From Parcubacteria bacterium C7867-001 (GTDB taxonomy: Bacteria > Patescibacteriota > Minisyncoccia > Phycocordibacterales > Phycocordibacteraceae), in the NCBI GenBank assembly GCA_001189095.1, contig LFCK01000002.1, positions 1,937-65,936 on the forward strand: 64,000 bases of DNA, read 5' to 3'. The translations under genes were made by a program, and so were the position numbers. This document shows positions 1 to 58,869 of the stretch, one piece after another. Within the stretch, counting starts at the first letter, position 1. Every line of letters begins with the position of its first letter. A model generated the notes under the pieces. The model worked only from the letters and a program-made list of their open reading frames with translations, was not told where the DNA came from and did not search any database.

Positions 1-183
1 GTTTCACTTCCCGAGGTTCGCGATCTTCCTTGCGGAAGAACAATCCATACGGATTTGGTTTCCCTATTCGGACATTTCCGGATCAAAGGTTACAAGTCAC
101 CTCCCCGAAACATTTCGCAGACTAGTCACGTCCTTCATCGCTGTTGTAAGCCTAGGCATCCACCGTGCGCCCTTAATTGTTTC
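1..183 (-). rRNA. rrl: 23S rRNA, 5' end (partial, continues beyond window start)
   Basis: Reverse complement reads ...AATTAAGGGCGCACGGTGGATGCCTAGGC...GCGATGAAGGACGTG...GGGAAACC...GGGAAGTGAAAC, matching the universally conserved 5' domain of bacterial 23S rRNA; 5' boundary approximate. Confidence 0.85.
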
Positions 184-493
184 CTGTGCGGAAACCTGAA
201 CACCACATGTTCATTATGATCTTTTGCAATTCTTCCTCGGCACTAACAAATGCCGAGGTCGATTACCTTTTCTTTTTTCTTGCGTATTCAGTTATCAAGG
301 AGCCCGTATCTCTTGAAACGAAAACCGCCCCGAGGGGCGGCTTTCGTGTTTCCACGATGGGTCAGCGACCCGTTCCGCTCCTTGGTTTAGGTAGACTTCG
401 TAGTGATAGACACGTAGGGAGGAGTATATGCGTGTCCCCCTACCCTGTCAACACCTCGGGGTTTCAGCTGCTTTCTGGGGATACTGGGGACAG

Positions 494-3672: not shown

Positions 3673-4317
3673 CTACACGATTGCCTGAGCAATTGATCCC
3701 ACCACAAAGGCGGCGAGGAAGTTAAATACAAAGGAGAGGAGAATGAACGTGCGCATGCGCATCTTCGTAAACCCTAGGATAGTGATACCAATCTCGTCCG
3801 GGAGCGGCGACGCAATGATGAGACCACCCACCAAAAACGCGAGCCAGCGCAACGACTTGAGCGACATGAGCCGCTTAAAGCGCCGATATGCGCCCTGCTC
3901 AGCAAGGAGTGAGGTGAGATGTTCGGAGAAACGATCGCGTATAAAGCGGAAGATGATGAGATCGCCACAGACCGCACCGAGCGCTGCCCAGAACGCCGTG
4001 AACAAAACCCCCTGCCCTAACGCGAGCTCACCAATGGTCACCGTCGCGGGAGCAACGGTGAGAAGCGACGTGAAAAAGATTCCGGCGATGAACGTACCGA
4101 GTATCGAAAGCTCTTTGGTCTGCTCGAGGAGAAGCGCGAACGAATTATTGCCGATAAGAATTCCGGCAACCACAAGACTTATCGCTATGATGACGAGATC
4201 AAACCAGATCTCCTGATGAGCTTTGGCTAGGCGTCGTCTCATGAGAAGCGGATTACCACGGAACACCGACTGAAGTAAAACGAAGCACGAGAAGCGCAAC
4301 CGCGAGAATGAGCGCAA
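3673..4317 (-). CDS. Integral membrane protein, unknown function
   Basis: 214 aa ORF, 5-6 predicted TM helices; start may be internal Met (MRRRLAKAH...). Confidence 0.5.
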   Translation of the reverse strand: MRSFSRLRFSCFVLLQSVFRGNPLLMRRRLAKAHQEIWFDLVIIAISLVVAGILIGNNSFALLLEQTKELSILGTFIAGIFFTSLLTVAPATVTIGELALGQGVLFTAFWAALGAVCGDLIIFRFIRDRFSEHLTSLLAEQGAYRRFKRLMSLKSLRWLAFLVGGLIIASPLPDEIGITILGFTKMRMRTFILLSFVFNFLAAFVVGSIAQAIV

Positions 4318-12983: not shown

Positions 12984-13285
12984 CAGCGCACTGCTGCGCT
13001 GTTATGCTTTTCGAAATCGGCCGGAGGCATGTTTTGCGAGCACGCAAAACAGCCGAGGCGGGATCGCGGAAGTTTGCGAGCGACGGGGAGCAAAATATCC
13101 GTGATTGGAGAAAGCGTAACCTTCACGAAATAAGCACACGGAGGCGTGCTATCGTTCGATGAGAAGTTCTGTTAGCCCGCAGGAACTATGGAGCGAAACG
13201 GGTCCTGTTGGGCTTCGCGGGCACAACCCGTTACGCAATTCAAAAGGCCCGCCGCATATGCGGCGGGCCTTTCTCATTTGCCTAG

Positions 13286-47196: not shown

Positions 47197-47347
47197 ACCG
47201 CTCGCTTTCGCTTGTGTCACGGATATTTCCTCGCCGACGCTCGGAAATTCCGCGACCCCACCTCGCGGTTTTGCCTGCTGGCAAAACATCGCTCCGGCCG
47301 CACATGGGCAAGAGCCCTTTGCGCAGGCAAAGTGCTCATGTCCCATG

Positions 47348-51671: not shown

Positions 51672-51897
51672 CAAAAGACAGAAACGCCTGCCCTTCGGCA
51701 GGCTTTCTGCTTTTGTGCTCCCGGAGGAAAGCGTCTGCACGCTTTCCGTTAGGAATCGAAAGGCGCAGCGATGTTCGGCCAGCAGGCCGAACCGCGAGCC
51801 GGGGTCGAGAAATTTTGTTTGCGTCGGCAAACAAAATATTCGTGACCGAAAGGCGTAATCGCCGGTTCCTACCGTAAAAAATGCTATAACTCCTCCA

Positions 51898-56823: not shown

Positions 56824-57075
56824 TCATGAGGTCCGTTCTTCGTAATCCGTCGGATCGAAGTCCCAGCGCGCGCCAAATATCCAGATCAGGATATAGAGCG
56901 CGAATAGCGTAGAGCCGATGTAATTCGTGTACGGAGTCGAGAGGATGAACACAAAGAAGATGAACGCTATCCGGAGCAGAAGCACCGGAAGTCCGAACGT
57001 ATAAGCGATGCCGCCGAGTATCCCAGCGACCCAGTTATGATCCGAAACTTTCTTGAACGGCTTGCGAGCAAGCAT
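56824..57075 (-). CDS. PspC-domain membrane protein
   Basis: Start refined to MLARKPFKKVSDHNWVAGILGGIAYTFGLPVLLLRIAFIFFV... Confidence 0.75.
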   Translation of the reverse strand: MLARKPFKKVSDHNWVAGILGGIAYTFGLPVLLLRIAFIFFVFILSTPYTNYIGSTLFALYILIWIFGARWDFDPTDYEERTS

Positions 57076-57251
57076 TACTGTCTCCTTTTCTTGCCTAAGA
57101 GGCACATTACGCCAGCGCCGCATTTTGTCCACTCATTAGAAATTACGCTATCTTTTTGCTAGTATCCAAGCACGCGCCCATATGGAAATGCCCATATGGC
57201 CGCTCGTTCGGCGAGACAGAGTGCCTTCGGGCATTCTATCTGCCTCACTTC

Positions 57252-57324
57252 GCGCCCATAGCTCAGTCGGTAGAGCAACTCCCTTTTAAGGAGTGGGTCC
57301 CTGGTTCGAGCCCAGGTGGGCGCA
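57252..57324 (+). tRNA. tRNA-Lys (anticodon TTT)
   Basis: Acceptor GCGCCCA/TGGGCGC, anticodon arm ACTCC-CTTTTAA-GGAGT, T-arm CCTGG-TTCGAGC-CCAGG; hairpin terminator at ~57333..57359. Confidence 0.85.
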
Positions 57325-57472
57325 CAAAGACGAAAATCCTGACCTGCGTCAGGATTTTTCGCTTTGTGCGAGGCGGAGCCATGTCGCCTTAGCGACGGCG
57401 AGCCCGGGTCGGGGTTGCGAGCTAGATTGCGAAGACATGGAGCAATCTAGCCGCAAACCGTGACCACATGAA

Positions 57473-57985
57473 TTAACTCTGATTTTCTAGTATTTCTCTA
57501 AAATTCTTCCTTAATTCCTCTTTGGCTTTTTTTAATTCATCTTCCGAAATTTCGTAAGCCTTATACCATTGATCATAAGATATTTTTCCATCCGCCAGCT
57601 GCTCCGAAAAGTTTGAACTTACTAAATTACTTAACACGCGAATGGAAGCGTCAATAAAATTTTGAATTGCTTCCGAGGAGCCTTGATTAAATAGAATCTC
57701 TTTTTTTAAGAAAAAAGATCTTAGGGCATAAAGTTGATTTAGAAGCATCTGAACCTCTTTTTTCTTTTCCTCTAGGCGATCTCCGCCAAACATTGAACCT
57801 TTCGTTGCAATGTACTTCCTTAGACTGTCTTCCAAATCGATAACTTTTTCGAAAACATCTTCAATATGCAGAAGTTGTTTTTCGTAAAGTTTCTCGAACT
57901 TATATCTTCGTTTGGCGAAAAAGTATGTAAGGACTGCGGCTGCCAACCCGCTTGCAAGGGCTTTAACTATATCGGGGTCCAACAT
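57473..57985 (-). CDS. Hypothetical protein, strongly AT-rich gene (probable horizontally acquired)
   Basis: 170 aa, N-terminal TM then K/E-rich coiled-coil-like region; base composition and codon usage unlike the surrounding high-GC genes; 1 nt after holA-like stop. Confidence 0.6.
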   Translation of the reverse strand: MLDPDIVKALASGLAAAVLTYFFAKRRYKFEKLYEKQLLHIEDVFEKVIDLEDSLRKYIATKGSMFGGDRLEEKKKEVQMLLNQLYALRSFFLKKEILFNQGSSEAIQNFIDASIRVLSNLVSSNFSEQLADGKISYDQWYKAYEISEDELKKAKEELRKNFREILENQS

Positions 57986-57986
57986 A

Positions 57987-58640
57987 TCAACTCAAATTTA
58001 GAGCCCACCTCTCCAAACTCTCCTTCAGTGGGAGCTCTCCACTCCTTGAGTCACTCAACAACTCAATCAAATCCCTCGATAACACCCTCGTCTCCTCCTT
58101 CGTCCACCCCTTCCCTCCTTTCTGCATCATGTCCCTCGCCTTCCAGTGAAGAAGACCATGCAGCATTTCGGGAGCATCTCCCTGCCGCTCTGCTTTTACG
58201 ATCTCCTTCCAGAGCGCGAGCGCATCCTTTGATGCGAGCGCGTTTACGAGCGCACCATTAAAACCACGCGCTGCCGGTTTTTCTTTTGCATCGACCGTGA
58301 AAACCTTTTCTGCTTTCGCTTCGATTTTCTTCGCACGCGCAGCGAGGAGTTTCGGTGCAAGAATTGCAACAACATTTTCTGAATCCTTAAGTTCTCCGAG
58401 ACGCTCGAGCACAAGCTCGCCTGCTTCGCTTAGAGCAAACGGATCATCAAGCAGAACGAGAGACTTCGCGTGGAAGAGTCCGCGCGATGAGAGTGCTTCG
58501 TTGAGGACCGCTTCCGAAAGATCGTCCGCCGGAATGCGAAGGTACGGAGCGTCAGGAGCTTTCGCACGGGCCGCAGCGACCCATGCGAACGCCTTTGCGC
58601 GCACCTTCCCTGAGTCAGAACCCGTAAAGAGGTAAATCAC
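57987..58640 (-). CDS. holA: DNA polymerase III delta subunit-like (HolA, short)
   Basis: MIYLFTGSDSGKV... N-terminus and overall pattern resemble HolA; weak. Confidence 0.45.
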   Translation of the reverse strand: MIYLFTGSDSGKVRAKAFAWVAAARAKAPDAPYLRIPADDLSEAVLNEALSSRGLFHAKSLVLLDDPFALSEAGELVLERLGELKDSENVVAILAPKLLAARAKKIEAKAEKVFTVDAKEKPAARGFNGALVNALASKDALALWKEIVKAERQGDAPEMLHGLLHWKARDMMQKGGKGWTKEETRVLSRDLIELLSDSRSGELPLKESLERWALNLS

Positions 58641-58709
58641 GCTTGTATTCTAGACCAAAAAAGCTAAGGGCGCTCCTTGCGGAGCGCCCTAGTCACACGC
58701 GATTCGTGG

Positions 58710-58844
58710 ATCAGTTGAGGAGTGGCTTCAGTACGAGCGCCCACATGAGCGCACAGTACAGAATCACGCCTACTGCCACGAGACCCGGTGAAAGCTTTTT
58801 CGGTTTCGGAACGTTCTGTTCCGAAGAACGAGCAGGTGAGATCA
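58710..58844 (-). CDS. Candidate 44-aa small membrane protein (not in ORF track)
   Basis: Translated by hand: MISPARSSEQNVPKPKKLSPGLVAVGVILYCALMWALVLKPLLN; GGAGG 5 nt upstream of ATG; between polA and holA-like genes. Confidence 0.35.
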
Positions 58845-58869
58845 TTCTGTCCTCCCTTGAACCCTTCTA

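Follow-up and report, generated by a model that had tools for sequence, protein, structure and literature searches.

How did a strikingly AT-rich gene come to lie at the end of the polA-holA operon, beside a tRNA gene, and what might its product do? The gene, an open reading frame (ORF) encoding 170 amino acids and called ORF170 here, lies in the 64,000-nucleotide stretch of DNA from Parcubacteria bacterium C7867-001 that was analyzed as a whole (the window). An original prediction had described it as a recently acquired cargo gene, possibly with a function in phage defence. The analyses presented here indicate that ORF170 was almost certainly acquired by horizontal transfer. The locus is made up of the following genes:

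57473..57985, minus strand: ORF170, ATG start, 170 amino acids, annotated by NCBI as hypothetical protein ABA06_02695
57987..58640, minus strand: holA-like gene (DNA polymerase III delta subunit), 217 amino acids, the closing native gene of the tsaE-polA-holA operon
57252..57325, plus strand: tRNA-Lys(UUU), convergent with holA

ORF170 is a real, intact gene, and it forms the most AT-rich stretch of the window, in agreement with the contrast to its flanks that had been reported for it. The 500-bp bin at 57501-58000 has a GC content of 0.362, the lowest of 128 bins; the runner-up has 0.446, and typical values are 0.51-0.58. Base composition and codon usage were compared across the 68 ORFs of at least 90 amino acids in the window. 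Within this set ORF170 has the lowest overall GC (0.363 vs a host mean of 0.544; z score -6.0), the lowest GC at third codon positions (GC3, 0.347 vs 0.594 +/- 0.063; z score -3.9) and also the lowest GC at second positions (GC2). Leucine is encoded by CTA or TTA at 11 of 22 positions vs 7% in the host, and CTC, which accounts for 45% of host leucine codons, is never used. Recoding of the ORF170 protein with host codon preferences gave a GC of 0.462, compared with the observed 0.363. Thus about half of the GC deficit is due to the amino acid composition of a protein rich in K, E, L, I and F, and about half to foreign synonymous codons.

The holA-like ORF matches the TIGR01128 holA model with E 3e-8, under the curated cut-off. 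The JGI label on its homologues is DNA polymerase III delta subunit, and the ORF aligns over its full length to the holA genes of relatives. A single nucleotide (57986) lies between the holA stop and the ATG of ORF170 (UGAuAUG), and 147 nucleotides lie between the 3' end of tRNA-Lys(UUU) and the ORF170 stop; the distances originally given (1 and about 150 nucleotides) were therefore accurate. The foreign segment spans 57469-57986 (518 bp, one gene), bounded by a structured element on the tRNA side and by the holA stop codon on the other. An overlapping plus-strand ORF (57866..58261) sits within holA and ORF170 and is unsupported. Further upstream in the operon, between polA and holA (window 58641-58869), a small ORF of 44-88 amino acids without a Pfam match is called, as it is in several relatives (L042-L045).

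To gather related loci, GTDB species representatives were scanned with polA and proteins were searched with holA. This yielded 16 loci with holA and sequence past its stop, with polA identities of 53-72% and holA identities of 29-77%. In loci of sufficient length, synteny is conserved for tsaE-polA-holA, a convergent tRNA-Lys, a gene with an LTD domain, murE and ruvA. ORF170 is missing from the slot between holA and tRNA-Lys in all 16. The slot is empty in six relatives (L005, L006, L007, L009, L011 and L014), where only 3-25 nucleotides separate the holA stop from the tRNA-Lys 3' end, and it holds unrelated cargo in seven; several of the assemblies end shortly past holA. The cargo found in the slot is as follows:

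L044: gene for a 581-amino-acid protein with HTH_3 and PEP-utilizer domains
L010 (about 3760-3800) and L043 (about 3770-3807): basic ORF of about 20 codons (MAKGMTHKKEKKKPKK...), a terminator hairpin and a fragment resembling the tRNA-Lys 3' end (GTGCGCCCGCTGGGA)
L015: ORF of 88 amino acids
L042: ORF of 91 amino acids that include two transmembrane helices, and after it an inverted tRNA-Lys
L008, 11114-11883: 770 bp with no convincing ORF, no Rfam match and no copy of the structured element
L045: convergent gene for a membrane protein

Since the content of the slot differs across relatives, the site is an insertion hotspot, which bears out the island position beside a tRNA that had been proposed for ORF170. 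The tRNA-Lys 3' fragment in L010 and L043 looks like an att-type remnant of an old site-specific integration. Based on these comparisons, gain of ORF170 in the C7867-001 lineage is far more parsimonious than many independent losses, and the donor would have been a low-GC lineage, probably another one of Patescibacteria. An ancient gene would be expected to occur, equally AT-rich, at this locus throughout the lineage; it was looked for and was found in none of the relatives. With its foreign codons and its absence from this site in relatives, ORF170 fits the earlier description of a gene that is acquired and not native. Five assemblies of the strain, from separate samples, are identical across 20.5 kb, with no empty-site allele or polymorphism among them.

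The opposite side of the tRNA carries another gene:

56824..57132, minus strand: gene for a PspC-domain membrane protein (Pfam PF04024, E 3e-8), normal GC, on the 5' side of tRNA-Lys

No PspC-domain gene was found by tblastn at the locus of any relative; there, the tRNA is followed immediately by the LTD-domain gene. C7867-001 has lineage-specific insertions on either side of tRNA-Lys.

The protein encoded by ORF170 belongs to an unnamed, unannotated and sparsely distributed family. A word-indexed protein search returned only the self-match; an exhaustive phmmer search over 1.84 billion cluster representatives returned 43 representatives at E <= 1e-3, 16 of them at E <= 1e-10. Most of the homologues are 166-178 amino acids long and align end to end. 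The top one is 48% identical over the full length, and no homologue recovered in this search of cluster representatives exceeds that value. Motifs kept in the family are a juxtamembrane RRYxFEKL, a KKEIxLD that closes helix 2 and a C-terminal LKxxFRK. Profile comparison links the close subfamily to the distant one (hhalign probability 99.6%, E 7.7e-25).

The single N-terminal transmembrane helix previously reported for the 170-residue product was recovered: the top 19-residue Kyte-Doolittle window covers residues 6-24 (score 1.77). There is no lysine or arginine before this helix and there are five after it. The same arrangement was seen in the 25 aligned members of the family, all of which have a lone N-terminal hydrophobic segment, with no lysine or arginine ahead of it (one exception) and one to five behind. 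As these residues occur only past the transmembrane segment, the positive-inside rule predicts a bitopic protein with its short N-terminus outside and its C-terminus inside, and hence a cytoplasmic four-helix bundle. AlphaFold2, supplied with an alignment of 25 sequences, produced a model with a predicted local distance difference test score (pLDDT) of 94.7 and a predicted TM-score (pTM) of 0.82, in which residues 4-61, 68-98, 101-129 and 133-167 form four helices. The protein is thus very likely, as modelled, anchored by its N-terminal transmembrane helix, which runs on into the first helix of an antiparallel four-helix bundle in the cytoplasm. The richness in K and E noted for it earlier is real (11.2% and 10.6%, respectively); the coiled-coil-like region described along with it is replaced in the model by a compact four-helix bundle. 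A fold search against BFVD gave uncharacterized phage proteins (best TM-score 0.68, E 2.9e-3), including an ORF from the int-cI region of phage HP1; one weak match was to a PspA/IM30 protein.

In the genomic contexts of the family, the GC content of the homologue is under that of its flanks in 21 of 21 loci, and in 7 of 11 loci no neighbouring gene has a lower GC3. Equal GC3 in homologue and neighbours was seen only in very AT-rich genomes (L026, L031 and L033), which look like the natural reservoir of the family. The following neighbours were found:

L021, L032/L033, L034-L037 and L039: homologue 70-600 nucleotides downstream of a tRNA gene
L026, 5477-12577: type III restriction-modification operon with Mod, the homologue, DUF3800 and Res, in this order
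L024, 8001-9182: homologue with a DUF3800 gene immediately downstream
L028: homologue, type IIG restriction-modification enzyme and OLD/GajA-like TOPRIM protein
L034: tRNA-Asp, homologue, type II methyltransferase and DpnII-like endonuclease, in an AT-rich islet
L046: homologue adjoining an AbiTii/Schlafen-AlbA_2 gene and umuDC
L027: homologue (P0046) directly beside a prophage integrase
L030: homologue adjoining an IS110 transposase

The pairing of an ORF170-family gene with DUF3800 in two unrelated genomes (L024 and L026) suggests that the two may form a functional two-gene module. DUF3800 is RNase H2-like and is an accessory domain of type VII retrons (PMC7736814); it has also been linked to many structured RNAs (PMC5737381).

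The region between the tRNA and ORF170 raises a question of its own. The original prediction had pointed to a perfect 10-bp inverted repeat there, and the repeat was confirmed as part of a larger structure:

57421..57451, plus strand: inverted repeat, GCTAGATTGC (57421-57430) and GCAATCTAGC (57442-57451), perfect over 10 bp with an 11-nucleotide loop, forming the apical hairpin of domain D2
57321..57370, plus strand: hairpin H0, arms of 23 nucleotides, loop CUGC, the 5' arm starting within the tRNA 3' end, terminator-like on both strands
57362..57470, plus strand: structured element of two domains, D1 (GGC-GGAG-C.AUG-hairpin-GCGAG-CC) and D2 (GGGUCG-GG-long hairpin-CC-GUGAC)

The 147 nucleotides between the tRNA and ORF170 are GC-rich and have a folding energy of -56.9 kcal/mol (z score -5.6). 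They are 77% identical (E 5e-20) to the sequence 3' of tRNA-Lys in L010, with compensatory changes in both hairpins; pairing of the inverted repeat is kept through a T-A to C-G and a T-A to A-T change. Further copies were found with a covariance model built from two sequences, those of the window and of L010. Four copies lie within the window and others outside it:

window 57362-57470, plus strand: after tRNA-Lys
window 51754-51852, plus strand: between two tRNA-Arg genes
window 47211-47307, minus strand: between tRNA-Arg and tRNA-Leu
window 13010-13111, plus strand: right after efp
L010, 3917-4032: downstream of tRNA-Lys
L044, 5527-5641: after tRNA-Lys
L015, 4616-4668: copy truncated at the contig end
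L008, 15282-15382: orthologous to the window copy at 51754
L021, 135-233: after tRNA-Gln

All copies share the orientation of the upstream gene; most lie just behind a tRNA and one follows efp, and copies in different genera are found at orthologous positions. Each copy has a long CUGC-loop hairpin ahead of it, which behind tRNAs starts inside the tRNA 3' end; the window copy at 51754 has an additional upstream hairpin with a CUUC loop. In D1, standard pairs occupy 77 of 77 pair cells and two-sided changes were found in 7 of 11 pairs, a covariation to be read with the caveat that the structure was derived from the same sequences. This level of pairing was reached by none of 500 shuffles, and slid controls were 38-53% paired. 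Rfam 15 gave no match at 57326-57472 (E <= 10) or in the copies of relatives. At the Rfam gathering score the window contains tRNAs and rRNA only, the latter being the 5' end of a 23S rRNA gene at the window edge (1-186, minus strand; LSU_rRNA_bacteria, 106.5 bits).

The structured element ends in GUGACCAC, and homology among the window, L010 and L044 ends directly past GTGACCAC at 57468, 4 nucleotides short of the ORF170 stop. By sequence comparison, the inverted repeat belongs to a structured element that is conserved, occurs in several copies and predates the insertion of ORF170. Its reading as a feature of an island was not sustained, for the element is also present in L010 and L044, which lack ORF170. 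The element is a candidate new non-coding RNA, or a candidate processing or termination module. Several other identities were considered for it. In an attC site of an integron cassette, R'' (RYYYAAC) stands at the 5' end and R' (GTTRRRY) at the 3' end; the stem has GTTGCG 5' and CGCAAAC 3' on either strand, the reverse of this order. The copies also follow tRNAs and efp instead of cassettes, and no intI gene was found within +/-10 kb. A small peptide was rejected as well: GGAG-N3-ATG occurs in every copy, but the frames range from 3 to more than 36 codons and are not conserved, while the stems covary. A miniature inverted-repeat transposable element or an IS200-derived element is unlikely, since within a single genome the copies differ strongly and show compensatory changes, and since their positions are orthologous across genera.

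How ORF170 might be expressed can be proposed from its position. No promoter-like site was found upstream of the gene; the minus strand has a single one, which is located past the ATG. With no such site of its own and a start one nucleotide past the holA stop, ORF170 would most likely depend for its transcription on read-through from the polA-holA operon and for its translation on termination-reinitiation coupling at UGAuAUG. In the scenario that we propose, an intact ORF170 would have been gained from a low-GC donor into the hypervariable slot between the holA stop and the element trailing tRNA-Lys, and the copy found here would be an orphaned, solo one. The protein could act alone at the membrane, like superinfection-exclusion or abortive-infection proteins, or it could tether or sense for a partner nuclease. 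Its neighbourhood and architecture give grounds for tentatively suggesting a role as a membrane-anchored phage-exclusion or defence-accessory protein. The composite reading of a foreign gene for a membrane-anchored bundle with such a role is the one towards which we lean. A wider interpretation is doubtful: the family might be a new membrane-anchored anti-phage component, either a single-gene exclusion protein or one that serves nucleases of the DUF3800 and restriction-modification types as membrane partner or sensor, spreading in Patescibacteria and other bacteria as minimal cargo and, separately, the element composed of H0, D1 and D2 might represent a novel structured RNA class, one that marks insertion hotspots 3' of tRNAs in these reduced genomes or brings them about.

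A number of results weigh against the composite reading. On the side of acquisition, the only bound on the date of the gain is that it followed the split from relatives whose holA is 77% identical. Among called genes within +/-10 kb there was no Pfam match to an integrase, recombinase or transposase, and no convincing direct repeats were found to flank ORF170. The sole candidate, a 10-nucleotide repeat with 9 of 10 positions matching (57305-57314 and 57998-58007), is probably due to chance because it lies inside the conserved holA coding sequence. On the side of function, ORF170 gave no significant family match in Pfam, PADLOC (none at E <= 10), PHROGs or NCBIfam. A Pfam scan of the 25 aligned members gave scattered noise of coiled-coil type, and a profile search against PDB sequences gave only E values of at least 0.18. 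The fold search against PDB retrieved generic four-helix bundles (Tar/Tsr and LytS-N; all E >= 0.027), and the fold itself is a generic one. No experimental result and no sequence match (PADLOC, PHROGs, Pfam, NCBIfam and PDB) ties ORF170 to a known defence protein. Homologues were detected neither in IMG/VR viral contigs (two sub-alignments scanned) nor, by tblastn, in INPHARED phages and PLSDB plasmids. Of the homologue contexts that are informative, about half (L023, L031, L033, L040 and L041) contain only housekeeping or unknown neighbours. PADLOC, applied to the ten neighbours of ORF170 within +/-10 kb, gave a generic methyltransferase-domain match and one marginal hit, and no defence model was matched over that distance; the homologues P0030 and P0047 had no PADLOC match. 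The suggestion in the original prediction of an effector of the phage-defence or abortive-infection type has circumstantial backing from distant homologues near restriction-modification, DUF3800, OLD-like, AbiTii/Schlafen, integrase and IS110 genes; at the locus itself it failed in PADLOC.

Comparison with known systems helps to place the gene. Like tRNA-linked genomic islets, the ORF170 insert lies by a tRNA 3' end, has deviant composition and codons, is absent in relatives and occupies a site with cargo that varies by lineage; the duplicated tRNA-Lys 3' fragment in L010 and L043 adds to the likeness. Unlike such islets, it comprises 518 bp and one gene, has no integrase or transposase within +/-10 kb, is not flanked by direct repeats or att sites, and is separated from the tRNA by an older conserved structured element. 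Prophage superinfection-exclusion proteins (lactococcal Sie2009-type, HK97 gp15) have about 150-200 amino acids and a single N-terminal membrane anchor and are carried as accessory cargo. Set beside this general description, ORF170 is similar in size, anchor and cargo status; P0046 is located beside a prophage integrase, and the weak fold match to the int-cI ORF of phage HP1 belongs to the same comparison. It differs from them in having no demonstrated sequence similarity or significant fold similarity, in lying outside a prophage and in having no homologues in phage collections. The LemA family (PF04011) also consists of an N-terminal transmembrane helix and a helical-bundle domain. ORF170 shares this architecture and a similar length, but PF04011 was matched neither by ORF170 nor, among the families reported at E <= 1, by any of the 25 members, and no LemA protein was among the top PDB fold matches.

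Four-helix-bundle sensor domains (4HB_MCP, the Tar/Tsr ligand-binding domain and the LytS N-terminal domain) have the same antiparallel geometry and were the best PDB matches, which are weak (E >= 0.027, TM-scores 0.4-0.58). Such domains are located in the periplasm, flanked by a transmembrane helix on either side, and feed into signalling modules, whereas ORF170 has one transmembrane helix, a predicted cytoplasmic bundle and no output domain. In the case of DUF3800 modules (type VII retrons, DUF3800 RNA motifs), the distant homologues P0030 and P0047 are immediately upstream of DUF3800, once within a type III operon; by contrast, no DUF3800 gene is near ORF170, and the structured element matches no Rfam DUF3800 motif.

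Other explanations account for parts of the same evidence. ORF170 could be a horizontally acquired protein of membrane stress or envelope maintenance, unrelated to phage and built as a generic tethered bundle of LemA or PspA type. The combination of one transmembrane helix with a helical bundle, the weak BFVD match to PspA/IM30, the PspC-domain gene inserted independently across the same tRNA, and the several homologues among housekeeping and small membrane-protein genes (L023, L031, L033, L040 and L041) are all consistent with this. In Pfam, the 25 members show no match to LemA, to PspA or to an envelope family of any kind, and the recurrent restriction-modification, DUF3800, Abi-like, integrase and insertion-sequence neighbours, together with a patchy, AT-rich distribution at tRNAs, form the pattern of a mobile accessory gene rather than that of an envelope housekeeping one. 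We consider such an envelope function unlikely. Less probable still is that ORF170 is the remnant of a larger islet, its partners deleted, and is functionless or decaying in this genome. It stands solo and tightly packed between holA and the tRNA element. Restriction-modification clusters in L026, L028 and L034 have the homologue as their first gene or at an internal position, in L024 and L026 the homologue precedes DUF3800, and decayed remnants, among them the tRNA-Lys 3' fragment, occupy the slot in L010 and L043. Decay is at odds with a full-length protein (170 residues vs 166-178 in close homologues) that has all the family motifs (RRYxFEKL, KKEI and FRE) and is identical in five assemblies from separate samples, and solo homologues next to tRNAs are also found in L032/L033 and L039.

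Two further readings have little in their favour. An addiction module had been named in the original prediction, and a toxin or a holin-like lysis protein would likewise be small, horizontally acquired and equipped with a single transmembrane helix. The partner gene of such a module is absent: no small ORF adjoins ORF170, whose neighbours are holA and a non-coding structured element. There were no matches to toxin-antitoxin or holin families in Pfam, PADLOC, PHROGs or NCBIfam; the predicted, well-folded cytoplasmic bundle of 145 residues is unlike holins, and ORF170 is stably co-oriented with an essential operon. This makes a toxin or holin very improbable. The other reading, that ORF170 is an ancient native gene whose AT-richness stems from a protein rich in K, E, I and F, is already contradicted and is scarcely credible. 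Composition does account for about half of the GC deficit (0.462 expected vs a host mean of 0.544), but its GC3 is at the bottom of all 68 ORFs; every relative examined has the orthologous site without the gene, holA abuts tRNA-Lys in six of them, and no homologue is closer than 48%.

In our view the acquisition of ORF170 at a tRNA hotspot is a rather ordinary instance of horizontal gain, and what it brought in is a member of an unannotated but testable gene family; the structured element is arguably more novel than ORF170 itself. Parcubacteria have tiny genomes with few recognized mobile elements or defence systems. The holA/tRNA-Lys locus is a clean example of recent gain at a tRNA-linked hotspot, with a foreign gene grafted onto the end of the essential polA-holA operon. 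The recurrent restriction-modification, DUF3800, OLD-like, Abi-like and integrase neighbours make the family a reasonable candidate for defence screens. The covarying multi-copy element 3' of tRNAs, which is outside Rfam, is a candidate non-coding RNA of the Candidate Phyla Radiation that may merit study.

A minor observation was made at the 5' end of tRNA-Lys. The 10 nucleotides that span it (57251-57260, CGCGCCCATA) recur 78 nucleotides upstream in a small palindrome, GCGCCCATATGG...CCATATGGCCGC (57173-57203). The repeat of CGCGCCCATA may be due to chance or may be the remnant of a rearrangement.

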